A stretch of DNA of 64,000 bases from a virus. The stretch covers positions 1 to 64,000 of the IMG/VR virus record IMGVR_UViG_3300020469_003050; one strand, given 5' to 3'. How positions within the stretch are numbered: the stretch's first letter is position 1; each line of letters starts with the position of its first letter. Of the stretch, positions 1,390 to 20,900 are shown piece by piece. A program made the position numbers and the translations under genes. The notes below the pieces were generated by a model. That model was not told where the DNA came from. It saw only the letters and a list, made by a program, of their open reading frames with translations, and did no database searches.

Positions 1390-4214
1390 TATTCCATCCC
1401 CTCGTATTGCATATCAACCATTTTCTCATGCAATATCTCATTTGCGAGACCGTTTCTTAGGCCTCTTTGGTTTTCAGGTATCTTTTTATCTTTATAGATT
1501 TCTTCATATTGATAAAATTCTACACCTGGTATATAATACTCCCCATATGCTTTAAAACCTGGTACATAATTTATAAGTGCAGTTATTTGGGCTTGTAATG
1601 CCTGTTGTTGTTCTAATGAAACGGCTTTGCCCATAACATCTGCTAACTCTTTCAATTTGTTTTTGATGATTTCTTTCATCTTTTTTAATTTTGCTTTTCT
1701 TTTTTCTTCTTTAGTCATTTTCTTTTTTGTAGATTTATTTGAAGTAGTTTCTTCTTTATCGGAAGATTTTTCATCTTTCTTATCATCTTTCTTTTCTTCT
1801 TTCTTTTCTTTTTTATCTGACTTTTCTTCCTTTTCTTCTTCTTCTTTTTCTTCTACTTCTTCTTCTGACTCTTCCTCACTTTCTTCATTCTCAGATTCAT
1901 CAGTATTTTCCTCAGATTCATTTTCTTCGTCACTACCTTCATCCTCAGTTGATTCTTCTTCTGTATTTTCTTCTTCTGTGGATTCTTCTTCTGTACTTTC
2001 TTCTGTAGTTTCATTTTCTGTACTTTCATTTTCACTTTCTACTTCAATATCTTCTATTGACTCTGACTCACTTTCTTCTGTCTCTACTTCTACTTCCATT
2101 GTATCATCAGATGTATCTTGTGTTGGAATTTCTATATCGATTTCCATTTCTGCTTCAATTTCCATCTCTAGTTCCATCTCAATTTCTAATTCAAGTTGTT
2201 CTGTAACATCTGGAACAGGAACTTCTATTACTTCTGGTTCTACTGGTGTAATATCTGGTATTTCAACTTCTATTTCTGGTACTGTAATAATTTCTACTCC
2301 GGGTATATTACCAGGAATAGTAACTTCTGGTGCCTCAATAATATTATCAACAACTGAATCACCAGTACCTGTACCATCATCAATAATATCATCTATATCT
2401 GTTTCTACTACAGGTGCAACATAACCTGGACACATTTCATCATATTGTGGGTTTTGTTGACATTGTTGATTGAAGTATGCATCTTGATATCCTGTACATT
2501 GAAAGTTATAAAGTGGATCTAAATCACATTGCTGATTAAAATATGCATCAGCATATCCTGTACAACTTTCATCATACAATGGATTTTGCTCACATTGATA
2601 TGTTAAGAAAGCCGCCGCATATCCAGTACATGAACTATCATATAATGGATTAGATTCACATTGAAGTGTTAAATATGCCGCATCATAACCTGTACATTCT
2701 GAATCATATAAAGGATTGGCAGTACATGCCTGATTGAATATATATGTTGCATATGCTTCTGCATAACCTGTACACATTTGATTGAATAGTGTATTTGAAT
2801 CGCATTGTGTTGTCATGTATGAAGTTTTAAAAAATCTATAAGTCTTACCATTGTCTGGTTGAACAGTATTTCCACTTGCATTTTTTGTATATAAGAACAT
2901 ATGAGTTCCAGTTCCACTACCTTGAACCGAAACACTACTGATAGTTCCATAATCATCAGTACAATTCGTACCTGTACATTCCCATTTCCAGCCACCTGCG
3001 TTTATTTCTGCTTGGTTATAATATAATATCCAATAAAGTGTTGGGTCATTTGCTTTAGTTACTTCAACAAAGTCACTGCCTGCTCCTGCAACGTTTGTAC
3101 CATTGCTTGTTAATTCTGTAATTGCACTACTATAACCTGTACATGAACTATCGTAATGTGCATCTAAGCCACATTGTTGTGCTAAGTAGGCCGCGGCATA
3201 ACCCGTACACCCACTATCATAAAGAGGATTAGCAGTACATTGTTGAGTATAGATTGCTTCTGCATATCCCGGACAAGCCGCATCGTGTGTTGCATCTAAA
3301 CTACATTGTTGATTAAAATAAGCAGTAGCATAACCAGGACAACCTGAATCGTATAAAGCATCAGCGGCACAATTTTGGTCATATTGTTGGGCCGCATATG
3401 CAGTAGCATATCCTGGACAACTTGGATCATATAGTGCAGTATCATTACAAGGATTTGCTCTATAAGTAAACCAAGTTTTTATATCTTTTACGATAGGTCC
3501 GTAGTACCCGTCCCAATTACCTTTATCGTAACCATTAATTCTAAAACGAACATCACCTACTGAATTTGGTGTACGTATTGTTCCTACTTTATCTATGTGA
3601 TTGTAAATTTCTATATTGTCTTCGTGTATCTGCCAGACAGTTGTACCTTCTGCGACTTCATTAGTACTGTGGCTATTACTTGAATTCCATTGATACCATG
3701 TATCCATTGTCCAAGTTTTTGTTTCAACTACATTACCACTAGAATCTGTGACTTCTACAACTACAACTAATTCGTCCCAATATGTATCATCGGTGACTTC
3801 ACCTGTTGTAGTGTTTGCTCTATTGCTGATATTGGCACTACAAAAGTTACCAGGTGTATTGAAACAGTGAATATACTTCCATTGATAGTGAACTTTATCT
3901 ATGCTTACGCCTGTGCCTTGTAGTGCTTGATTGATTGCATAAGAAATAGCAAATGTATTTTGGCACTCTCCCCACCTTATAGTACTTCCAGATCCATAAA
4001 CATATGCGGCAGAAGTGCCTGCAGGACAATTACCAAATGGTTGGCCTATTGTACCATCATCTAAATCTAAGGTATTTGGACTAGTAGTTGTTGGGTTAGT
4101 TGGTGCAGTGGTATCTGATGCGAATACTGTGCTACAGAACGAAAGCCAGAACAGCAAGAATACCGCCGATAGTAAGCCCTTCGACCATTCCTTCTTTAGC
4201 AAGTTTTTTCTCAT
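1389..4214 (-). CDS. large exported protein: signal peptide, globular N-domain, two blocks of 22-aa Cys-pair repeats, P/E/I/V-rich spacer, poly-acidic then poly-Lys tract, C-terminal domain
   Basis: 941-aa ORF. N-terminus MRKNLLKKEWSKGLLSAVFLLFWLSFCSTVFA-SD is a signal peptide. About 11 repeats of C-x3-[ND]-P-L-Y-D-x2-C-[TP]-G-Y-x2-A-Y-x3-Q. Confidence 0.85.
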   Translation of the reverse strand: MRKNLLKKEWSKGLLSAVFLLFWLSFCSTVFASDTTAPTNPTTTSPNTLDLDDGTIGQPFGNCPAGTSAAYVYGSGSTIRWGECQNTFAISYAINQALQGTGVSIDKVHYQWKYIHCFNTPGNFCSANISNRANTTTGEVTDDTYWDELVVVVEVTDSSGNVVETKTWTMDTWYQWNSSNSHSTNEVAEGTTVWQIHEDNIEIYNHIDKVGTIRTPNSVGDVRFRINGYDKGNWDGYYGPIVKDIKTWFTYRANPCNDTALYDPSCPGYATAYAAQQYDQNCAADALYDSGCPGYATAYFNQQCSLDATHDAACPGYAEAIYTQQCTANPLYDSGCTGYAAAYLAQQCGLDAHYDSSCTGYSSAITELTSNGTNVAGAGSDFVEVTKANDPTLYWILYYNQAEINAGGWKWECTGTNCTDDYGTISSVSVQGSGTGTHMFLYTKNASGNTVQPDNGKTYRFFKTSYMTTQCDSNTLFNQMCTGYAEAYATYIFNQACTANPLYDSECTGYDAAYLTLQCESNPLYDSSCTGYAAAFLTYQCEQNPLYDESCTGYADAYFNQQCDLDPLYNFQCTGYQDAYFNQQCQQNPQYDEMCPGYVAPVVETDIDDIIDDGTGTGDSVVDNIIEAPEVTIPGNIPGVEIITVPEIEVEIPDITPVEPEVIEVPVPDVTEQLELEIEMELEMEIEAEMEIDIEIPTQDTSDDTMEVEVETEESESESIEDIEVESENESTENETTEESTEEESTEEENTEEESTEDEGSDEENESEENTDESENEESEEESEEEVEEKEEEEKEEKSDKKEKKEEKKDDKKDEKSSDKEETTSNKSTKKKMTKEEKRKAKLKKMKEIIKNKLKELADVMGKAVSLEQQQALQAQITALINYVPGFKAYGEYYIPGVEFYQYEEIYKDKKIPENQRGLRNGLANEILHEKMVDMQYEGME
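1710..2414 (-). repeat. low-complexity coding tract (P/E/I/V-rich, then E/S/T/D-rich, then K/E-rich) inside the 941-aa gene
   Basis: Translation reads EIEVEIPDITPVEPEVIEVP..., ESESESIEDIEVESENESTENETTEESTEEESTEE..., EEKEEEEKEEKSDKKEKKEEKKDDKKDEK. Confidence 0.8.
2421..2804 (-). repeat. Cys-pair repeat block 2 (about 6 units of about 22 aa) in the 941-aa gene
   Basis: QCDSNTLFNQMCTGYAEAY / ACTANPLYDSECTGYDAAY / QCESNPLYDSSCTGYAAAF / QCEQNPLYDESCTGYADAY / QCDLDPLYNFQCTGYQDAY / QCQQNPQYDEMCPGY. Confidence 0.85.
3129..3449 (-). repeat. Cys-pair repeat block 1 (about 5 units) in the 941-aa gene
   Basis: PCNDTALYDPSCPGYATAY / NCAADALYDSGCPGYATAY / QCSLDATHDAACPGYAEAI / QCTANPLYDSGCTGYAAAY / QCGLDAHYDSSCTGYSSA. 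Confidence 0.85.
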
Positions 4215-4722
4215 TATCTACATCAACCTTTTTAGGCATCTTTTGTGGATTCTTTTTCCACAATTCGTATGCTTCTTCGCCAATTTTACCATTGTACGGA
4301 CAGGGTGTCCCTGCCATAGCCATAGCATCAAAAACTCTTCGGTCTTGACACATTACTGATACCGCCGCAACCTTCATGCCCATATCGTATAGTGTTTTGG
4401 AAAGTTTAAGTCTTTCACAATTGGCATCCCTGTAGGTTTGACCTGTAGATACTCCTAAAATCTGCGTTTGTACTGCGCCACTAACACCAACAGTACATAA
4501 ATCAGAATTACTTCCACTAATAGAAGGCGATATAGCACTAGGTGGTGGGCTTTTTACAGTTGTATCAGTATCCGTATCAGACTTGACTGTACTATTACTA
4601 GTAGAATCTGTAACGATAGGATCTGCCGCAATCGCAGATGTAGTTAACATGATTCCCAAAAGTAACGCAATGAAAAAGGTCAAAGCGGTAGAGTGGGAAA
4701 GATATTTCCTTTTTAGGCTCAT
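4132..4722 (-). CDS. exported protein with C-terminal TM anchor, unknown function
   Basis: ORF track gives 4132..4752. I prefer Met-11 (ATG at 4722) because GAGGAG lies 6 nt upstream. It has a signal-like ALTFFIALLLGIMLTTSAIA-AD, a Cys-containing middle and a C-terminal TM (LTIGGILAVLAFVL). The last 83 nt overlap the start of the 941-aa gene. Confidence 0.65.
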   Translation of the reverse strand: MSLKRKYLSHSTALTFFIALLLGIMLTTSAIAADPIVTDSTSNSTVKSDTDTDTTVKSPPPSAISPSISGSNSDLCTVGVSGAVQTQILGVSTGQTYRDANCERLKLSKTLYDMGMKVAAVSVMCQDRRVFDAMAMAGTPCPYNGKIGEEAYELWKKNPQKMPKKVDVDNEKKLAKEGMVEGLTIGGILAVLAFVL

Positions 4723-10754: not shown

Positions 10755-11330
10755 ATGAATAAAATTATTGTGACAGACTGTGACGGAGTCCTCCTCGATT
10801 GGGAAAACTCTTTCTATGAGTGGATGAAATCAAGAGGATATGATGCACATAATGTAGGTGTTTACGACATGGCAGATGTATTTGCTATGAAAAAGAAAGA
10901 AGTAAAAAAGCTGATTAAAGAATTTAATAATAGTTCATGGATGGCTACTCTGCCTGTTCTACGTGATGCAAGAAGTGGTGTTGCTAAACTTGTAGAAGCA
11001 GGATACGAATTTCATTGTGTAACTTCATTGAGTTTAGATGAAAACACAAAAGCATTAAGACAACAGAATTTAGATAATGTATTTGGAAAAGGTGCGTTTA
11101 CTAAACTAGTATGTTTAGATACTGGTGCAGATAAAGACGAAGGACTTGAGCCTTACACTGATACCGGTTATTACTGGATAGAAGATAAAACTGAGAATGC
11201 ACTTTGTGGACTAAAATATGGATTACAACCAATTCTTATTAGTCACCAACACAATTCAGAAATGACAAGTGATGGTATGATTCCAGTTGTTGATACTTGG
11301 GCTGAGATTGTAGATATTATTGTAAAATAA
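10755..11330 (+). CDS. HAD-superfamily phosphatase/hydrolase
   Basis: 191 aa. HAD motif I is at the N-terminus (IIVTDCDGVLLDW). VTS (motif II-like) and a late acidic motif (YWIEDK) are also present. Confidence 0.7.
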   Translation: MNKIIVTDCDGVLLDWENSFYEWMKSRGYDAHNVGVYDMADVFAMKKKEVKKLIKEFNNSSWMATLPVLRDARSGVAKLVEAGYEFHCVTSLSLDENTKALRQQNLDNVFGKGAFTKLVCLDTGADKDEGLEPYTDTGYYWIEDKTENALCGLKYGLQPILISHQHNSEMTSDGMIPVVDTWAEIVDIIVK

Positions 11331-11350
11331 TGAGGGAGCGAACTCCCTCA
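11331..11350. terminator. hairpin between convergent genes (bidirectional terminator candidate)
   Basis: TGAGGGAG-cgaa-CTCCCTCA, a perfect 8-bp stem between the stops at 11330 (+) and 11357 (-). Confidence 0.6.
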
Positions 11351-11356
11351 CCACTT

Positions 11357-12097
11357 TTAATCGTCTTCTCCGTAAATTTTTAGAACTTCTGTAACTGCAG
11401 GATGCCTCTCCACATCCATTAAATCAAATCTACTAATACTAATATGATTTAATTTTGCTTTTTCATAATTGTTCACAAGTTCTACAAAATCTGAAAGACC
11501 GTTTTCTGAAAATCCTCTGTCATGTTGCTTTAGGTCGCCGGTTACTATCATCTTTGTATTAACACCTATTCGGGTTAGTAACATCTTCATTTGAGATTTC
11601 GTTGCGTTTTGCATTTCGTCTGCAATGATCCACGAGTTTTCAAATGTACGACCACGCATATATGCTAATGGGGCTATCTCAATCAAATTTTCTGTGAGCA
11701 TCATTTCGATTTGTTGCATCGTAAAATGCTTCTCAAATATATCAAATATAGGCCTAGTCCATGGTGACATCTTTTCGTTTAAATCACCGGGTAAGAACCC
11801 ATGTTGCTCGTCAACTGATACTGCAGGACGAGTTATAACTATTTTTTTCACCTCTCTTTCCATGAATGCTTTTATTCCCATTTGCGTACACAGGAGTGTT
11901 TTACCTGTACCAGCAGGACCAATCGCAAATACAATATTATTATCTGGATTAGCTAACTGATATAGATAGTCTTCTTGTGATACGTTTCTGGGTAAAATAG
12001 TTGGAATTGTTTTTTTATGTAGCGGGATTACACCGTAATCGTTGCTACGGCTCTGTGCTTTGTTGTTATGTTTTTCAACACGTTTTTTTCGTGCCAT
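11357..12097 (-). CDS. phoH: PhoH-like ATPase
   Basis: 246 aa. Motifs: AIGPAGTGKT, ITRPAVSVDEQHGFLPGDLNEKMSPW, GRTFENSWIIADEMQN, VTGDLKQHD. Strong RBS AAGGAGG. Confidence 0.9.
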   Translation of the reverse strand: MARKKRVEKHNNKAQSRSNDYGVIPLHKKTIPTILPRNVSQEDYLYQLANPDNNIVFAIGPAGTGKTLLCTQMGIKAFMEREVKKIVITRPAVSVDEQHGFLPGDLNEKMSPWTRPIFDIFEKHFTMQQIEMMLTENLIEIAPLAYMRGRTFENSWIIADEMQNATKSQMKMLLTRIGVNTKMIVTGDLKQHDRGFSENGLSDFVELVNNYEKAKLNHISISRFDLMDVERHPAVTEVLKIYGEDD

Positions 12098-12165
12098 GTG
12101 TTTTCCTCCTTAAAGAGGGATTTTCAGAATGAGCATTACACTCAATATTACTTATCTTTTTTAGG

Positions 12166-12194
12166 TTGCAAATAACTAGCAATACTGCTAAAAT
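12166..12194 (+). promoter_or_regulatory. weak promoter candidate
   Basis: TTGCAA (12166-12171), 17 nt, TAAAAT (12189-12194), in the divergent phoH/12240 intergenic region. Confidence 0.3.
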
Positions 12195-12239
12195 AAGAAA
12201 ATAAATTTTCTTTGTTACAAAAAAGATAAATAGATATGT

Positions 12240-12770
12240 ATGAAGATTATGGAGAAAAGCATGTCAGATGTAAACTCAAATGATATTATTGACAATATAA
12301 GAAATGTCGATAAAAATGGCACATTGTTAGACGTTCTACTTGAATTTGAAAAAGTATTGGACGAAGTTGGCATGTATGCTTATAAGAATTGGTCTAAAGG
12401 TGAAATCGCTATGGGACCAAAGCTATCACGTTATTGGTTACACGTTAAAGTAATGTATCAATATGATGATATGCCTGACCCAAGAGCAGGATTAAGATTA
12501 ACTAAATTAGGCTGTGAAGTCAAATATGAACAAGCAGTACTAAAGACACCAATTACTCCAAAATCGCCAGAAGATTTAGATGGCAATGGTAAACCAAAAC
12601 TGAAATCTGACACAGTTTGGTTAATTGATATTTTAATGCCACGTAAGTTTGTAGATGAGTTTACAGACGAAGAAATGGCAGTTGGTGACATCAAAGTAGA
12701 TACAGAAGCATTAGGTAATGCAGAAGTACAAGGACTTGATGATGCTACCAATCAGCAACAGGATATTTAA
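12240..12770 (+). CDS. hypothetical acidic protein
   Basis: 176-aa ORF. The likelier start is ATG 12261 (MSDVNS), downstream of GGAG. Confidence 0.65.
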   Translation: MKIMEKSMSDVNSNDIIDNIRNVDKNGTLLDVLLEFEKVLDEVGMYAYKNWSKGEIAMGPKLSRYWLHVKVMYQYDDMPDPRAGLRLTKLGCEVKYEQAVLKTPITPKSPEDLDGNGKPKLKSDTVWLIDILMPRKFVDEFTDEEMAVGDIKVDTEALGNAEVQGLDDATNQQQDI

Positions 12771-12772
12771 TT

Positions 12773-13180
12773 ATGAAGTTTGAGCAAATTATAGAAGGCG
12801 TAGGACATAACGATTTGAAAGGTCTAGTATCAAATAGAATTTCAATAGCTGAGTTCGAACCTAAAACAGGAAACGAAGAAGATGTTATTGTTGTAGCATT
12901 CTATGTAAAAGATGATAAACCTGCTCAAGACCTAGCAACATTTATGGAAAAAGGTGTTGTTGATATTTTAGATACCGAAGTATCTCCGAATGCAGACGAT
13001 GATGGTCACTACTTAGTATTTGTTGAAATGAAGAATGAAAACATAATGAAAACTACTTTAGAACTATTAGATGATGTTGCTCGTATTTGCAGTTGTGATG
13101 ATTGGTCACTAGAATTTTATGGTGGCAAAACAGTATCAATAAAAGCAGATGAAATTGAAGGGTATCTAAAAAAGAATTAA
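12773..13180 (+). CDS. hypothetical acidic protein
   Basis: 135-aa ORF. N-terminus is MKFEQIIEG. Confidence 0.65.
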   Translation: MKFEQIIEGVGHNDLKGLVSNRISIAEFEPKTGNEEDVIVVAFYVKDDKPAQDLATFMEKGVVDILDTEVSPNADDDGHYLVFVEMKNENIMKTTLELLDDVARICSCDDWSLEFYGGKTVSIKADEIEGYLKKN

Positions 13181-13395
13181 TGGCCAGAGAACCCGCTATG
13201 GAATTTGAAGGTGATGTAGTAGATATCACTCCCGGATGTTTCAAGGTCAAATTAGATAACGGTCATATAATTGATGGTATGTTATCTGGAAAAATGAGAA
13301 AGAATAACATTAAGGTTATTCTGCATGATAGAGTTAAAATTGAAGTGACTCCTTATGATATAACAAAGGGTCGCATAACTTTTAGGTACAAATAA
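13180..13395 (+). CDS. infA: translation initiation factor IF-1 homolog
   Basis: 71 aa, full-length and collinear with bacterial IF-1. Examples: EFEGDVVDITPGCFKVKLDNGH, SGKMRKNNIKVILHDRVKIEVTPYDITKGRITFRYK (compare E. coli [34 protein letters not shown]). Confidence 0.9.
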   Translation: MAREPAMEFEGDVVDITPGCFKVKLDNGHIIDGMLSGKMRKNNIKVILHDRVKIEVTPYDITKGRITFRYK

Positions 13396-13396
13396 T

Positions 13397-13873
13397 ATGT
13401 TTTTTTATAGAATCAAAAAATATCTAATAATCGCAGGTATTCTAGCCGCGGTTGGATTTGGATTATTTAAGTATTATGAATATACACAGAATCAAATAAG
13501 AATATATGCCGAAAATGCCGCTAGAGCAGAAATGGCTCAACAAGAGACACAAGCCGCTTTAGAGAAAACAATGAAAGACCTAGAGTTAGTACAAGAAAAA
13601 TTTACTAAGGTTACTGAGCAATTTGCGGCGGCTAATGGTCGTGTAAAAGGCTTAGAAAATAAACTAAAAGAACATGATTTACCTTACTTGGCTGAACAAA
13701 AACCAGGATTAATCGATAAAATAGTTGACAAAGGTACTAAAGATATGTTAAGATGTTTAGAAATAGTAAGTGGTTCACCACTAACCGAGGAAGAAATAAA
13801 TGTTACTAAGAAAAGTAAAGCAAATACCACATGTCCTGATATTGCTAACCCTAACTACGTTCCTATTAACTAG
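13397..13873 (+). CDS. i-spanin candidate (N-terminal TM plus coiled coil)
   Basis: 158 aa. TM is YLIIAGILAAVGFGLF, then a helical charged region. Its 3' end is overlapped out of frame by a lipoprotein ORF. Confidence 0.5.
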   Translation: MFFYRIKKYLIIAGILAAVGFGLFKYYEYTQNQIRIYAENAARAEMAQQETQAALEKTMKDLELVQEKFTKVTEQFAAANGRVKGLENKLKEHDLPYLAEQKPGLIDKIVDKGTKDMLRCLEIVSGSPLTEEEINVTKKSKANTTCPDIANPNYVPIN

Positions 13874-14258
13874 TTGCGGGTCAGTTCCAAAATCAGTAAC
13901 ATATACGCCCAAACCAGTTGAGCGGCCTGAGTTAATTTTGCCTGAAACAAAAACATTGAATATGCGTAACGTTGACTTTATTGTAATGACAAGAGAAAAC
14001 GTTGAAGAAGAATTCGCTAAGTTAGAAAAAGACGGTAAAGCCATTGTTATTTTTGGGTTAGATGCAGAAGACTATGAAAAGTTATCATTCAACATAGCAG
14101 ACATTTTAGAATTATTAGACCAACAACAATCAGTCATAGTTGCGTATAGAGAATATTACGAAGAAGCAGATAAGACCCTTGAAGAAATCAATTCACAAAG
14201 CGAAGTAGAAATTGAAGTCGATAAGGAAGATGGCTTTCTTTCTAATTTTCTCAAATGA
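13800..14258 (+). CDS. o-spanin candidate (lipoprotein), overlapped architecture
   Basis: 152 aa. Signal plus lipobox: MLLRKVKQIPHVLILLTLTTFLLTS-C. The mature N-terminus is Pro-rich (PKSVTYTPKPVERPELILPE). RBS GAGGAAG. The start lies inside the upstream gene. It is longer than typical o-spanins. Confidence 0.5.
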   Translation: MLLRKVKQIPHVLILLTLTTFLLTSCGSVPKSVTYTPKPVERPELILPETKTLNMRNVDFIVMTRENVEEEFAKLEKDGKAIVIFGLDAEDYEKLSFNIADILELLDQQQSVIVAYREYYEEADKTLEEINSQSEVEIEVDKEDGFLSNFLK

Positions 14259-14641
14259 CAGACAATCCATACTCAGTTTTAAAAATCGATAAATATTCTA
14301 CAACAGATGATATCAGACAGTCTTACAAAAGGCTTATGAAGAAGCATCATCCTGACACTGGTGACGGTGACAGAGAAACATTTGATAAGGTACGACTTGC
14401 TTATATACAGTTAAAAGATAAAAAACCCGATAATGGTGTTGTAAGGACACTCAGCATAACAGTCCCTATAACAAAGCAAGACTTATCTTTAATCTTAGGC
14501 ACTAGACAAACATTCATGTGTCAGGATGTTCCTTTCGATGTAATGGTTCCTTATGAGACTAGAATTAATGATACTATTGTTGTTAAAAAAATACTAGGTG
14601 ACTTGTCACTTAAAATAAAATTCAAGGAAGACAATGAGTAA
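14255..14641 (+). CDS. J-domain (DnaJ-like) co-chaperone
   Basis: 128 aa. Canonical J-domain: NPYSVLKIDKYSTTDDIRQSYKRLMKKHHPDTGDGDRETFDKVRLAYIQL, with intact HPD. Confidence 0.8.
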   Translation: MTDNPYSVLKIDKYSTTDDIRQSYKRLMKKHHPDTGDGDRETFDKVRLAYIQLKDKKPDNGVVRTLSITVPITKQDLSLILGTRQTFMCQDVPFDVMVPYETRINDTIVVKKILGDLSLKIKFKEDNE

Positions 14642-16850
14642 AGCAGATAGAGTAAATGTTTCGATTGAACGTGCCGTACAACATGCAAATTCTTTAGCAC
14701 ATGAATATGTGACACTAGAACATCTTTTATATTCAATTATAGAAGAACAAGATGTTAGCGACATGCTTACGAAAATGAAATGTGACGTTAGATTTATTTT
14801 AGAAGAACTAGAAAAGTATCTAAATGAACGTGATGATATTACAAAAGGTGAAGATAATAGTGTACCTAGAAAAACTCTATCATTAGACCGTGTTTTCAAT
14901 CGTGCAGTAACACAGGTAATCTTTAGTGGTCGTTCTAAACTTCAAGTAAGAGATATATTTGTTTCTCTATTGAGTGAAAATGGTTCTACTGCTTATTACA
15001 TTCTAAAACAATCAGGTGTAACAAGAGATAAAGCAATCGATATTCTAAGAAAAGAATATTACGGTACGCAACAAGGTAGAGACATGGCAGGTCCTCCGGG
15101 TCAAGGAGCACCAGTAAGATTTGAAGACTATTGTTTAGATTTAAATCAACAAGCATTAGACGGAGTAATTGATCCAGTTATTGGACGGGAAGATGAGTTA
15201 ATTGAATTAACAGAGGTACTAGCAAGACGTAAAAAGAATAATGCTATTATTGTAGGTGAACCTGGAGTAGGTAAAACTGCAATAGCAGAAGGTCTTGCAT
15301 TGATGATTGGCGAAGGTCATGTACCAGAGATATTAAAAGACAAAACAGTTTATTCACTAGATGTTACATCGCTTGTAGCAGGTACAAAGTATCGTGGTGA
15401 ATTTGAAGAAAGAGCGAAAGCAGTATTTGACCAACTATCAAGTAAAGATAATGTAATATTATTCATTGATGAAATTCATATGATTATGGGTGCAGGTTCG
15501 GCAGGTGGGTCTAACATAGATATTGCAAACTTATTAAAACCACTGTTAGCAAGTGGTAAATTACATTGTATTGGTGCAACAACAAGTGAAGAATACAGAG
15601 AAAACTTTGAAAAAGATAGAGCATTACAAAGACGTTTTCAAAAACTAGTTATTGAACAACCAAACAAAGAAAATACAAAATTAATTTTGAAAGGCTTGAA
15701 ACAATATTACGAAGCATATCACGAAGTTGAATACACAAACGAGTCTATAGACTTAGCAGTTGAATTAGCAGAAAGATATATGCATGGTAAGTTCAATCCT
15801 GATAGAGCGATTGATGTCCTTGATGTAGCAGGTGCAAGAGCAAAGTTACACAAGCACAAGGGCAAAATTAATAAGGCAGAAATAGAACAAGCTATTTCAA
15901 AAATTACAAGAATTCCTTTAGAAATGATAGATGCAAAACAAAATGCAAACTATGAAAAACTAGAAGAAAATATTAAGACAAAACTATTTGGACAAGACAA
16001 AGCAGTTGGTTCATTAGTTGAATCTATACTCGTATCTAAATCAGGTATGAGAGCAAGAAATAAACCTATTGGTTCATTCTTGTTTGTAGGTCCAACAGGA
16101 ACAGGTAAAACTGAATTGTGTAGACAGTTAGCAGAAAATCTTGATGTTAAACTTAGAAAGTACGATATGTCAGAATACATGGAACAACATTCTGTATCTA
16201 AACTTATCGGTGCCCCTCCAGGGTACGTAGGACACGCCGACGGCGGGGCTGGTGCTGGACAACTAATCAGTGATGTAGATGAAACACCTAATTGTGTTGT
16301 TCTATTAGACGAAGTTGAGAAAGCCCACCCAAGTGTAATGAACCTCTTATTACAAGTTATGGACGATGGTCGTTTGACTAGTTCAACTGGTAAAACAGCA
16401 GACTTTAGCAATGTTATTCTTATAATGACTAGTAACTTAGGAGCGGCACAACAATCTAAGAGTGCTATAGGGTTCACGAATTCAAATGAAGGTGCTTCAT
16501 ACGAAGCAGTTAAGAAATTCTTTACACCAGAGTTTAGAAATAGACTTGACGCAATGGTTGAATTTGTTTCATTAGAACGTGAACATATAGACATGATTGT
16601 TACCAAAACAATCAAAGAAATTAATGAAATGTTATCAGATAAAAATGTAACTATTAAATTATCAGCAAAAGCAAAAACATGGCTGAGAAATAAAGGATAT
16701 CAACCTGATATGGGAGCGAGACCTTTACAACGTGTAGTCAACGATTACATTAAAAAGCCGTTATCAAAAGAAATATTATTTGGTAAACTTGTTGATGGTG
16801 GACTGGTAACTATCAAAATTGTAGATGATAGGATTGAGTTTGTATACTGA
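14634..16850 (+). CDS. clpA: ClpA-type double-ring AAA+ unfoldase
   Basis: 738 aa. Clp N-domain (HEYVTLEHLLYSII). D1 Walker A GEPGVGKTAIAEGLA and ILFIDEIH. D2 Walker A GPTGTGKTELCRQLA and VLLDEVEKAH. No ClpB middle domain. A ClpP-docking-type tripeptide is present (SAIGFTNS). Confidence 0.9.
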   Translation: MSKADRVNVSIERAVQHANSLAHEYVTLEHLLYSIIEEQDVSDMLTKMKCDVRFILEELEKYLNERDDITKGEDNSVPRKTLSLDRVFNRAVTQVIFSGRSKLQVRDIFVSLLSENGSTAYYILKQSGVTRDKAIDILRKEYYGTQQGRDMAGPPGQGAPVRFEDYCLDLNQQALDGVIDPVIGREDELIELTEVLARRKKNNAIIVGEPGVGKTAIAEGLALMIGEGHVPEILKDKTVYSLDVTSLVAGTKYRGEFEERAKAVFDQLSSKDNVILFIDEIHMIMGAGSAGGSNIDIANLLKPLLASGKLHCIGATTSEEYRENFEKDRALQRRFQKLVIEQPNKENTKLILKGLKQYYEAYHEVEYTNESIDLAVELAERYMHGKFNPDRAIDVLDVAGARAKLHKHKGKINKAEIEQAISKITRIPLEMIDAKQNANYEKLEENIKTKLFGQDKAVGSLVESILVSKSGMRARNKPIGSFLFVGPTGTGKTELCRQLAENLDVKLRKYDMSEYMEQHSVSKLIGAPPGYVGHADGGAGAGQLISDVDETPNCVVLLDEVEKAHPSVMNLLLQVMDDGRLTSSTGKTADFSNVILIMTSNLGAAQQSKSAIGFTNSNEGASYEAVKKFFTPEFRNRLDAMVEFVSLEREHIDMIVTKTIKEINEMLSDKNVTIKLSAKAKTWLRNKGYQPDMGARPLQRVVNDYIKKPLSKEILFGKLVDGGLVTIKIVDDRIEFVY

Positions 16851-17538
16851 GAAAGTAGCTAAATTATTTTATGGAACACACCCGTACAAAATAACATACA
16901 AAAGACTCTACGGATTTCCAGACAAAGACAGTTTGTTTTTCAAAAGACATTTTGAAAGCAATCCAAACGCAATCAATGAATGGTGGTTTGACATGCCATC
17001 AACAGATGAAGAAAAATCTGTTAGAGTTAATTGTTATAATTTCTTAAGAAAATTTAAAGACATAAAATTCAATAATGGTGCTCATACACATGCTTATTTT
17101 AAGTATAAATCAGACTACGAAGAAGCTAGAAATAGATATGTAGATTTACACAAATCTTACGCTGAACCACTAGTTGAAAATCTCAAAGAAGTATTGGATA
17201 GTTTTGACCGTAGAGTAGAACTAAAAAATAATCTATGGTTCAAAACATACAAATATAAGATAGTATTCAAACCTAACAGAGATTTCATTGACCATACAGG
17301 GCATGATTTATATAAAATGTACGCACATAATACAAATTATAGACTCAACTCTAATATGAAACGATATGACCCTGTCTATTTACGAACACATCAAAAGAAA
17401 AGACATATTCATCACCAATATCAGCTATATGCTATATATTGCCTAGATAAAATCGATGCAGACTTGCTAACTTTCGTTGCAAGTGAGTGTATTGGTACCA
17501 TAACAAAAGCCGTGCTATTAAGTGATTTAGATAAATAA
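16825..17538 (+). CDS. hypothetical protein
   Basis: 237-aa ORF. Its start overlaps the clpA 3' end. Confidence 0.6.
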   Translation: MIGLSLYTEKVAKLFYGTHPYKITYKRLYGFPDKDSLFFKRHFESNPNAINEWWFDMPSTDEEKSVRVNCYNFLRKFKDIKFNNGAHTHAYFKYKSDYEEARNRYVDLHKSYAEPLVENLKEVLDSFDRRVELKNNLWFKTYKYKIVFKPNRDFIDHTGHDLYKMYAHNTNYRLNSNMKRYDPVYLRTHQKKRHIHHQYQLYAIYCLDKIDADLLTFVASECIGTITKAVLLSDLDK

Positions 17539-17593
17539 GTATAGTTATTATTGAACAAACTATACAGGTTAATTACGAAGGGTTGAAGAATAT

Positions 17594-17965
17594 ATGGCAC
17601 GTAAAACAGTTACACTTTTACCACAAACAGGTAGTCTTGAATTAGATACTACTGGAAATGCAGTCCCTGGTGATAGCTATTACGGTTATACAGATGGGAT
17701 ACATACAGTAGCTATTTACGGACAAGCATTATCGGGAAGAGTTAAAATACAAGGAACATTGGCAACTAATCCAACAGAAGATGATTGGTTTGACATACTT
17801 TTTAGCGGATTACCATATAAAGACTACACAAATTTCACAGGAGTTGAAGGCTTCACATTCGTGGCTAACTTAGTTTATTTAAGAGCATCTTTAGATAGAA
17901 CTTCATTGGGTATATCAGATTTTACTCAAGCAGGTTATATAGAGAAAATCTTTTTGAATTACTAA
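17594..17965 (+). CDS. hypothetical protein, first gene of the fibre block
   Basis: 123-aa ORF immediately upstream of the giant fibre genes. Confidence 0.6.
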   Translation: MARKTVTLLPQTGSLELDTTGNAVPGDSYYGYTDGIHTVAIYGQALSGRVKIQGTLATNPTEDDWFDILFSGLPYKDYTNFTGVEGFTFVANLVYLRASLDRTSLGISDFTQAGYIEKIFLNY

Positions 17966-17977
17966 AGGAACACAGAT

Positions 17978-20900
17978 ATGAGCATTAACGCACAACCATT
18001 TAGTCCTACATTTAAACTAGTTGGCAATTTGTCGGATAGCCAAATTTTAGTTTATGATGCTAGTGAAAATGCGTTTGTAAACGCAACTAATACGGGTGCA
18101 ACTGGAGGCGCTGGTTTAACTACTGTACTTAATACAGGTACTGGAGTTGGATTAGGACAGGCTACAGGCACAGCCCTAGAATTAAAAAGTATTATAGCCG
18201 GCACGAATTTAACTATTACAGACAACGGTACTGCATTAGTACTTGATGTAGCAGGAGCCTCACAATCAGGATTAACAGACGGTACAAACTTAGGTACTGG
18301 TCTAGGACTTATAAAAGGCAACAATACAGCAGGAACTACACTTGAAACAAAGAGTATTACAGTTGGAACTGGCCTTTCTATCTCAGAAGCAAATGATACT
18401 CTAACTATTGACTTAACAGCAAATGTCAATGGCATGTTAGAGATTGCAAATAATTTATCCGATGTAGCCGACACTACAACAGCAAGAACAAACTTAGACG
18501 TATATTCAAAAGCAGAAACAGATTCAAAATATATCAGATTAGATGCTCATAGTATTCCTACTGTTGATAATACTTTTGATATAGGTTCTTCATTAAAAAG
18601 ATTTAACGATATTTACGCTGAAACATTCCAAGGTACAGCCTTACTAGCAGACAATCTTACTATTGTAGGTTCTGCACAAGGCGAAGTATTAACATGGAAT
18701 GGTTCAACATGGGTTGCTTCACAACCAACAGGTGGTGGAGGCGGTGGAGGCGCAGGCGTCCCACAAACTCTTTCTTTATTAGGTCAATCACTTACAATAT
18801 CAGGTGGTAACACAATTACATTACCATCATATAATGATGATGACCCATTCGTAAGATTAGACCAATCAACTGTTCCGACAGTAACAAATACATTTGATAT
18901 TGGTTCTGCAACATTCAAATTTAACGACATTTACGCTGAAACTTTTCAAGGTACTGCGGTAGCGGCTGATACTCTTACAGTAACAGGTAACGCAGGACAA
19001 GTTTTAACATATAACGGTAGTCAATGGTTAGCGGCTGACCCACAAGGTGCAGGAGGTGGAGGAAGTTCTACACCACAAACACTTGCATTAAACGGTACAC
19101 AGATAGCAATTTCTTCTGGTAACTCAGTTGACATAGGTTCACTTATCAGTACTGATTATAATAATCTATCTAATAAGCCTACAATACCAGCAGACGTATC
19201 AGACTTAACAGATACAAGTAGTTTACTAGCAGGCACACCACAGAGTTTAACATTAGCTGGAACACAACTTACGATATCAAGTGGTAACACAGTTGATTTC
19301 GCAGGTATGTTTACAGACACAGATAATCAAACATTATCTTTTAATACAGGCACAAACATATTAACAATCGCTAATGGTAATACTGTAGATTTATCAACTC
19401 TAGCAGGCGGTGGCGGTGCATCACAATTAGCTGATTTATCAGATGTAGATGCAGGTGGCGTTGGCGGAATGATGGCTAATGTCCCGCAAAACGGTGAAGT
19501 ATTAACTTGGTCACAAATTAATAGTCAATGGGAACCACAACCTGCTAATTCGGCTGTAACAAGTTCAGATTTAGATATGGGTGGCAATAAAGTTTTATTT
19601 GCTAACGTTTATGCTACATTAGGTGATTTACCAAGTGCAACTACATACCACGGTATGTTTGCTCATGTTCACGCAACCGGCAAAGGATATTTTGCTCATG
19701 CAGGTAACTGGGTACCATTAGCTAATGAAGCCAATATACCGGCAGATGTTTCAGATTTGACAGACACAAATAGTTTACTAGGTGGAGGTTCACAAACTCT
19801 AGCATTAAGCGGAACGCAGTTAACAATTTCAGGACAAAATACAGTTGATTTTGCTGGTATGTTTACAGATACAGATAATCAAACTTTATCATTTAATACT
19901 TCAACCAATATATTAACTATAGCAAATGGTAACACTGTAGACTTATCAAATTTAGCTGGTTCATCAAATGTTCAAACTATTGATGATTTAAGTGACGTTA
20001 CAGTAACAGGCACAACAGATGGTCAGTTCTTAGTATATAATAATACATCAGGTGATTGGGAAAATCAGACAGTAAATATACCTACATCTAACCAAGCACT
20101 TTCTACTACAGATAATGTACAGTTTGCAGGTATTCAATCGACAGGAACAGTTCAGGCTCAAGCATTTGAAGGTAACATATACGATACTAACGGCAATGTT
20201 CTACTTGATAATACAAGTGGCTCAGCAGGGTTCGGTGGTAATATCTCATCAAACGGATCTTCATCATTCTCAGGTACAGTAGATTTCAATGGTGCAACAA
20301 TTCAAAATTTAGATATATCACTAGGTGATTTATCAAACGTAAGTACAGCTACACCAACTACTGGTCATGTTTTAAAATGGACAGGTACAGAATGGTCACC
20401 GGCGGCAGACTCAACTGCTACAGGTGGTGCAGGTATATCTCTAACAGATTTAAGTGCAGGCGTTGGTTTACAATACAATAATACTTTAGGTTTATTCACA
20501 TTAAATGCGGCGATGACTGACTTACTGGATGTAGACACATCAGGTATTACTAACGGTCAAGTTCTAAAATGGAATTCATCAGCAAGTCAATTTGAACCAG
20601 AAAATGAATTTTCAATATCAACAACAGATGATGTAGCAGAAGGTTCTTCAAATTATTACTATACTACAGCAAGATTTGATTCAAATTTCAATTCTAAATC
20701 TACAGATGATTTACCGGGTGGTGCAACAAATCTTTATTACACAGATGCATTAGTAGATAATAGAGTAAACGTATTACTACAAGCTGGTCCAGGTATTAAT
20801 ATTCTACCATCACCGACACCAGGTGCTCCAATTACGATTGAGAACACAAATGTAGGTACTACTTATACAGATGCAGATGCCAGAAACGCAATTTCAGTTT

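Follow-up and report, generated by a model that had tools for sequence, protein, structure and literature searches.

The window analysed here, the first 64 kb (64,000 nucleotides) of a 342,607-bp IMG/VR virus record, encodes at positions 13180-13395 a true, full-length orthologue of the bacterial translation initiation factor IF-1. Because its position is conserved and its dN/dS is low, we consider the gene to be vertically inherited and retained by selection, that is, a fixed gene of a marine jumbo myovirus lineage and not a sporadic pick-up. Its product rather probably binds the A site of the 30S subunit and, together with an IF-3 and a ribosomal protein bS21 encoded by the same phage, would sustain and retune initiation of translation.

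The IF-1 gene and its operon

The open reading frame extends on the plus strand from an ATG at 13180 to a TAA at 13393-13395. In the initial annotation its 71-aa product was described as a full-length IF-1 collinear with bacterial InfA, which is borne out by both profile and structure comparisons. The equivalog model for infA (NCBIfam TIGR00008) matched with 90 bits at a cut-off of 61.15, with residues 4-70 aligned to model positions 2-69, and the Pfam family PF01176 matched with 58.3 bits at a cut-off of 30.2. Moreover, the protein is collinear over its full length with the IF-1 proteins of Pseudomonas, Streptococcus, E. coli and Thermus in the PDB (phmmer, E 1e-13 to 1e-21). The SGKMRKN...TPYD..KGRI core quoted in the initial annotation was found inside this alignment to solved IF-1 proteins. 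The corresponding PHROGs entry is phrog_30201, listed under 'unknown function'.

An AlphaFold2 model based on a 55-sequence alignment, of moderate confidence (pLDDT 66.7), comprises strands at residues 7-17, 20-25, 30-34, 51-56 and 64-70 and a helix at 37-41. At this confidence the predicted order, beta1-beta2-beta3, short helix, beta4-beta5, is the same as in the IF-1 OB fold. The first 14 PDB matches of the model in Foldseek were all bacterial IF-1 (TM 0.69-0.76, including 4ql5, 9fco and 1hr0), followed by e/aIF1A and RsgA. As an alternative, the earlier reading had named an OB fold of the cold-shock or another family. No cold-shock protein occurred among the first 50 Foldseek matches, and no CSD family matched at E <= 0.01. 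The S1 profile stayed below its cut-off of 22 with 19.4 bits, and RsgA_N was likewise below threshold. Since profile and fold matches go to IF-1, an identity as cold-shock or S1 OB-fold protein was rejected. Cellular IF-1 (TIGR00008, PF01176; 1HR0, 1AH9, 9FCO, 4QL5, 2N78) has the same length and a single OB domain, and is 50-63% identical. In contrast to it, the phage copy sits in an operon of virion and lysis genes, belongs to a clade found in phages only, and carries fixed substitutions as well as a deletion in the beta1-beta2 loop.

Table 1. Features around the IF-1 gene and companion translation genes. Positions are those of the window unless marked as genome positions.
Feature	Position	Strand	Evidence
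PhoH-like ATPase, divergent from the putative vsp1-IF-1 operon; left edge of the conserved block	11357..12097	-	PF02562, 234.9 bits
vsp1, virion structural protein homologue; first co-directional gene	12240..12770	+	phrog_12928, E 3.9e-35
vsp2, second virion-structural-type gene, immediately 5' of IF-1	12773..13180	+	phrog_13138, E 2.3e-27
65-aa ORF overlapping the IF-1 gene	13053-13250	-	mechanical ORF listing
TAATG overlap of vsp2 stop with IF-1 start	13178..13182	+	sequence
infA-like gene, phage translation initiation factor IF-1, 71 aa	13180..13395	+	ORF, profile, PDB alignment, fold, dN/dS
i-spanin-like gene, begins 1 nt past the IF-1 stop	13397..13873	+	phrog_739 Rz-like, E 2.1e-9; N-terminal hydrophobic segment
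o-spanin-like gene, overlaps the end of the i-spanin gene	13800..14258	+	phrog_812 Rz-like, E 1.4e-9; lipobox-like LLTSC
J-domain protein, ATGA overlap with the o-spanin gene	14255..14641	+	PF00226 DnaJ, 46.2 bits
ClpA-type double AAA+ ATPase, last gene of the order-conserved block	14634..16850	+	ORF; 74-93% identical in syntenic relatives
Peptide deformylase, 3 kb from the tmRNA	genome 278225-278656		PF01327, 128.9 bits
Permuted alpha-type tmRNA	genome 281184-281530 (L196:668-990)		RF01849, 122.6 bits
IF-3, 181 aa, ATG start	genome 292437-292982		TIGR00168, 144 bits
bS21, 88 aa, overlaps the end of the IF-3 gene by 8 nt	genome 292975-293241		PF01165, 55.6 bits
IF-3/bS21 pair	genome 292437-293241 (L032:1453-2257)		

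From vsp1 to ClpA all gene junctions overlap or leave a gap of at most 2 nt (Table 1). The homologues of vsp1 and vsp2 are virion structural proteins of PA5oct, Atu_ph07, Phosso, XaC1 and 121Q-type jumbo myoviruses; in the case of vsp1, the tblastn matches are proteins annotated as such in PA5oct-, Atu_ph07- and 121Q-type jumbo phages. Downstream of IF-1 all the neighbours claimed in the initial annotation were found, namely an overlapped pair of Rz-like spanins, a J-domain protein and a ClpA-type ATPase. The spanin pair (13397-14258) is of the overlapped type, as the o-spanin start at 13800 lies within the 3' end of the i-spanin gene; neither an endolysin nor a holin was recognised adjoining it. 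Between 11300 and 18000 no terminator-like site was found on the plus strand, and a sigma-70 promoter scan of the same region gave 29 promoter-like sites compared with 29.9 in shuffled sequences. At E <= 0.1, Rfam had no match in 11000-18000, and therefore no known leader or riboswitch is present there. The genes from vsp1 to ClpA look like one operon, which would begin in the divergent spacer between PhoH and vsp1.

No Shine-Dalgarno motif is present at -5 to -13 of the IF-1 start codon. In 30 of 30 relatives checked, IF-1 likewise begins inside the vsp2 end or right at it, and none of these 30 has a Shine-Dalgarno motif at normal spacing before it. As the stop/start overlap coincides with the lack of this motif, we infer that translation of IF-1 would be coupled to that of vsp2, the virion-protein gene upstream of it. 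Genome-wide, the signal is clear: in 369 upstream regions, taken from crude gene calls (each long ORF being read from its first start codon), G reaches 0.28-0.40 at -12 to -8 and AGGA occurs in 36% against a background of 3%. Therefore, the premise of the initial annotation, by which the leaders of many phage mRNAs would be short or weak, is not supported. In the same crude gene calls about 100 of 326 same-strand junctions fall between -8 and +5 nt, and the longest unidirectional gene runs comprise 51 genes.

Conservation, phylogeny and ribosome-contact residues

We found IF-1 in the same place in two IMG/VR contigs, one of them of 342 kb, and in 26 metagenome contigs, with 61-94% identity. 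The order PhoH (minus strand), vsp1, vsp2, IF-1, i-spanin, o-spanin, J-domain protein, ClpA recurs wherever these 28 contigs reach far enough, some of them being short and displaying part of the order only. The pair vsp1-vsp2 lies upstream of IF-1 in 31 related marine loci, and PhoH-vsp1-vsp2 is kept 5' of IF-1 in contigs L004, L015 and L016. Three distant contigs, in which IF-1 is 44-47% and its neighbours are 31-57% identical, also carry IF-1 in the same place; the whole order is present in L163, whereas it can be followed as far as DnaJ in L165 and as far as IF-1 only in L161. Pairwise dN/dS among ten close IF-1 copies (Nei-Gojobori, NG86) ranged from 0.03 to 0.34 and was mostly below 0.15 where dS was below 1. 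None of the copies seen has a disrupted reading frame. By these measures the IF-1 gene is shown to be under purifying selection.

Two observations concern single loci. Contigs L117 and L118 (Ga0228636_1000379 and Ga0228643_1000302) encode an IF-1 that is 93% identical to the window protein; their flanks (vsp1 67%, ClpA 83%) match the L121-L124 group, and the synonymous distance of IF-1 groups them there too. Mosaicism or recombination within the operon is likely for these two contigs. In L141 (Ga0208796_1000719, 3336-4447) 5 inserted residues lengthen the beta2-beta3 region of IF-1, and some 880 additional nt lie between this gene and that of the i-spanin; nowhere else is the constant gene order interrupted.

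In a tree of 133 sequences the window IF-1 falls into a 39-member clade (SH-aLRT 97) which consists of three IMG/VR phage proteins and 36 metagenome proteins, several of them on contigs of 207-333 kb. No sequence from a bacterial genome in this tree belongs to the clade. The 80 nearest species-representative bacterial genomes, mostly Alpha- and Gammaproteobacteria, encode IF-1 proteins with 49-63% identity, and the best of 401 evenly sampled alphaproteobacterial genomes (including two unpublished ones with 59% and 56%, on which nothing concluded here depends) also reaches 63%. Since no sampled bacterial IF-1 is more than 63% identical, the phage gene is not a recent capture from a host. The alignment of 72 columns leaves 78 of 130 forks open and does not place the junction of the phage clade with bacterial IF-1, so we make no claim on the donor or on the number of acquisitions. 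Of the alphaproteobacterial genomes, 385 had an IF-1 match; about 25 of these had two such matches, and one had three. Accordingly, infA is not strictly single-copy in Alphaproteobacteria, and the description of IF-1 as a single-copy host factor does not apply universally.

The contacts of IF1 with the ribosome have been described (PMC10913371, PMC4611024). K39 and M/K42 lie at the 530 loop, R41 and R46 at the flipped bases A1492/A1493, the beta1-beta2 loop reaches into h44's minor groove, H35, Y60, R64 and R66 face S12, and the C-terminal Arg is essential. In the numbering of the 72-aa bacterial IF-1, the phage clade keeps H30, K39, R41, K42, Y60, K64, R66 and R70 (H29, K38, R40, K41, Y59, K63, R65 and R69 in the window protein), each conserved in 74-100% of its 39 members. 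Replacements occur at seven positions whose invariance among the sampled bacterial proteins is at least 91%, namely of N19 by G, R23 by K, A34 by G (97% of the clade), H35 (at least 92% in bacteria) by I, T, M or L, with L in the window protein, R46 (at least 92% in bacteria) by K (100%), L48 by I (100%) and G50 by H or Y. Besides, M21 (77% in bacteria) is R in the clade, the window protein having C there, and Y44 (58% in bacteria) is N in 97% of the clade. The GKMRKNNI motif occurs in all IMG/VR and metagenome loci, which partly reflects the pattern used in the search; therefore, Y44N was counted in the independently recovered 39-member clade only. The 71-aa subclade that includes the window protein has lost one residue in the beta1-beta2 loop. 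The distant syntenic relatives have N at position 46, as does Phosso.

The window IF-1 thus has neither Arg46 nor His35. As the exchange of R46 to K is conservative, the protein could still bind the 30S subunit, but ordinary IF-1 activity is not to be assumed. All clade-specific changes lie within the three ribosome-contact elements known from the literature, a clustering that is suggestive only because conserved positions concentrate there anyway. Substitutions throughout the clade hit contact positions that are nearly invariant in bacteria, which suggests that the phage IF-1 may be tuned in affinity, fidelity or factor release and does not simply add to the dose.

Companion genes and the proposed role in initiation

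The source record has a 93-bp direct terminal repeat, a G+C content of 34.8% and a CheckV completeness of 100%. By these features and its homologies we take it to be the genome of a complete phage related to the jumbo myoviruses of the PA5oct/Atu_ph07/Phosso type. A megablast search with 5 kb around the IF-1 gene found no match among the GenBank phages, and thus there is no close cultured relative. The genome contains ten tRNAs and one tmRNA, whose tag peptide is ANDNYQPEMAMAA. Because this tmRNA matches the alphaproteobacterial type (Rfam alpha_tmRNA), the host is probably an alphaproteobacterium. A gene for SmpB was sought in the phage genome and not found; these data suggest that the phage tmRNA would rely on SmpB of the host.

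The genes for IF-3 and bS21 overlap and look like a phage operon of their own, with a GC-rich hairpin and T-run resembling a terminator 3' of bS21. While the phage IF-3 gene begins with ATG, bacterial infC starts with an autoregulatory AUU. The bS21 protein has an N-terminal extension of about 25 aa that is rich in N, R and aromatic residues. Searches of the phage genome for an IF-2/EF-type GTPase, an RF-1 domain and S1 found none of them. Of the further IMG/VR phages with an IF-1 gene and a completeness of at least 87-90%, 6/8 encode IF-3 and 9/9 encode bS21, and these two genes usually lie within a few kb. Since these companions co-occur in near-complete IF-1-bearing phages and no GTPase was found, the recurring set, as predicted from gene content, is IF-1, IF-3 and bS21, i.e. 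three small components of 30S initiation without the GTPase.

That the phage manipulates initiation on the 30S subunit, as proposed in the initial annotation, is plausible and gains support from its own IF-3 and bS21 and from the clade-specific changes at contact positions. We propose that the phage IF-1 would occupy the A site of the host 30S subunit as cellular IF-1 does, and that together with the phage IF-3 and bS21 it would sustain and retune initiation during a long infection. The three proteins may keep free 30S subunits available, speed the assembly of 30S initiation complexes and stimulate re-initiation at the tightly coupled gene junctions of long phage operons. According to a summary of work on E. 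coli (PMC12548453), IF1 and IF3 promote re-initiation where genes are coupled and coupling falls when IF1 is depleted, although this model and the role of IF1 in 70S-scanning are debated. Such stimulation would suit this phage since its genome is built of long, tightly coupled operons. A bolder version, in which an IF-1 with changes fixed at its decoding-centre and S12 contacts, IF-3 and the extended bS21 make the host 30S subunit phage-biased, either by favouring re-initiation within coupled operons (including that of the SD-less IF-1 gene itself, as a positive feedback) or by shielding the A site from ribosome-dependent toxins, seems doubtful to us.

Several other explanations have to be weighed against the proposed retuning of initiation. 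The phage IF-1 might act in the same way as that of the host and merely replace a short-lived or limiting factor after host shutdown. Most of the 30S-binding residues are indeed kept, the phage also brings IF-3, bS21 and a peptide deformylase, and a heterologous IF-1 can replace E. coli IF1, to judge from the title of a reference cited in PMC4611024. However, the replacement of seven or more near-invariant positions (at least 91%), which were then frozen in the clade, fits specialisation better, and an identity of at most 63% to any sampled bacterial IF-1 argues against a recent host capture; we regard such a supplement as unlikely, yet as an explanation to be taken seriously. The opposite effect, a variant IF-1 that binds the 30S subunit too tightly or unproductively and so stops host protein synthesis, is very improbable. 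It would agree with the altered contact residues in the decoding centre, with the argument that protein synthesis may be inhibited when IF1 is high and with the finding that an IF1-loop peptide inhibits bacterial growth (PMC10913371), but the phage needs the same ribosomes, the gene is placed among virion and lysis genes and not among early shutoff genes, and the proteins it co-occurs with, IF-3 and bS21, promote initiation. As for a neutral passenger or a decaying gene of host origin, nothing besides the general frequency of such genes in phages speaks for it. It is scarcely credible and was excluded because the position is conserved down to relatives with 44-47% identity and dN/dS is low (0.03-0.34); in addition, the frame is intact in every copy.

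Two further explanations retain an unusual use of the protein. Excess IF-1 could shield the A site and keep mRNA interferases of the RelE/HigB/YoeB/YafQ type, or other A-site effectors, off phage initiation complexes. HigB sterically clashes with IF1 on the 30S subunit, and such toxins are probably excluded while IF1 is bound (PMC4931118); the tmRNA represents other translation-repair cargo in this genome. This argument is purely inferential, though, and IF-1 departs at subunit joining so that elongating ribosomes would stay exposed. Moreover, no toxin or antitoxin gene was found near the IF-1 gene, and we consider a shielding function improbable. It is decidedly improbable, too, that the OB fold acts off the ribosome in a cold-shock-like manner, as an RNA chaperone or antiterminator melting structures in phage transcripts. 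RNA-chaperone and antitermination activities have reportedly been found for E. coli IF1, and the weak, sub-threshold S1 and RsgA_N matches point in the same direction. Against this, what is conserved is precisely the set of residues that contact the ribosome, the closest folds belong to IF-1 and e/aIF1A, the first 50 matches including no cold-shock protein, and the co-occurring IF-3 and bS21 point to the 30S subunit.

Relation to known phage initiation factors

Phage-encoded IF-1 has been known since 2020, when Al-Shayeb et al. reported that huge phages carry IF1, IF3, rpS1, rpS21 and others (Nature, PMC7162821). IF1 and IF3 of phages were reported again for soil huge phages, and annotated examples of IF-1 also occur in GenBank phages, including Sinorhizobium phage Phosso. 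The genome described here agrees with this translation set as it likewise exceeds 200 kb and encodes IF-1, IF-3, an N-extended bS21, peptide deformylase and tRNAs. In contrast to the published sets, we deal with one marine lineage in which IF-1 has a fixed operon position and its own residue signature. What is new is this fixed position, the residue signature and the count of co-occurring IF-1, IF-3 and bS21. No paper on this IF-1 clade was found in the literature searched, and the study of marine jumbo phages by Weinheimer and Aylward (2022) does not mention initiation factors. A further small protein related to 30S initiation, bS21, was described for Pelagibacter phage HTVC008M (Mizuno et al. 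2019, PMC6375957) and is also encoded here. It is a different protein from IF-1, and the shared setting is that of marine phages of Alphaproteobacteria; the Pelagibacter phage records of the phage collection gave no IF-1 match. Another route is taken by T7, whose protein kinase phosphorylates host IF1, IF2 and IF3, which was proposed to favour late phage mRNAs according to work cited in PMC6375957. Thus, T7 modifies the initiation factors of its host, whereas the present phage brings its own copies.

Our finding mainly confirms and refines a known phenomenon. Surveys list phage-encoded initiation factors, but in the literature searched we found no functional study of one. The lineage described here would suit a first functional test, being an abundant group of marine jumbo phages with a stable, core-like gene, a signature at known ribosome-contact residues, its own IF-3 and bS21, and a cultured distant relative, Phosso, with a homologue. 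If the variant residues do alter fidelity or re-initiation, this would reveal how large phages, which build no ribosomes themselves, reprogram existing ones.

The IF-1 proteins of Lak phages and of Phosso are 50-51% identical to the window protein. In Phosso (469 kb, PV764938, 115020-127793; L031) the IF-1 gene has a TTG start and adjoins genes for a MutT-like hydrolase and a Clp-family ATPase. It lies 8 kb from a vsp1 homologue and from a group of genes for a DnaJ-like protein, peptide deformylase and a Clp ATPase, an arrangement that resembles the neighbourhood of IF-1, J-domain protein and ClpA in the window.
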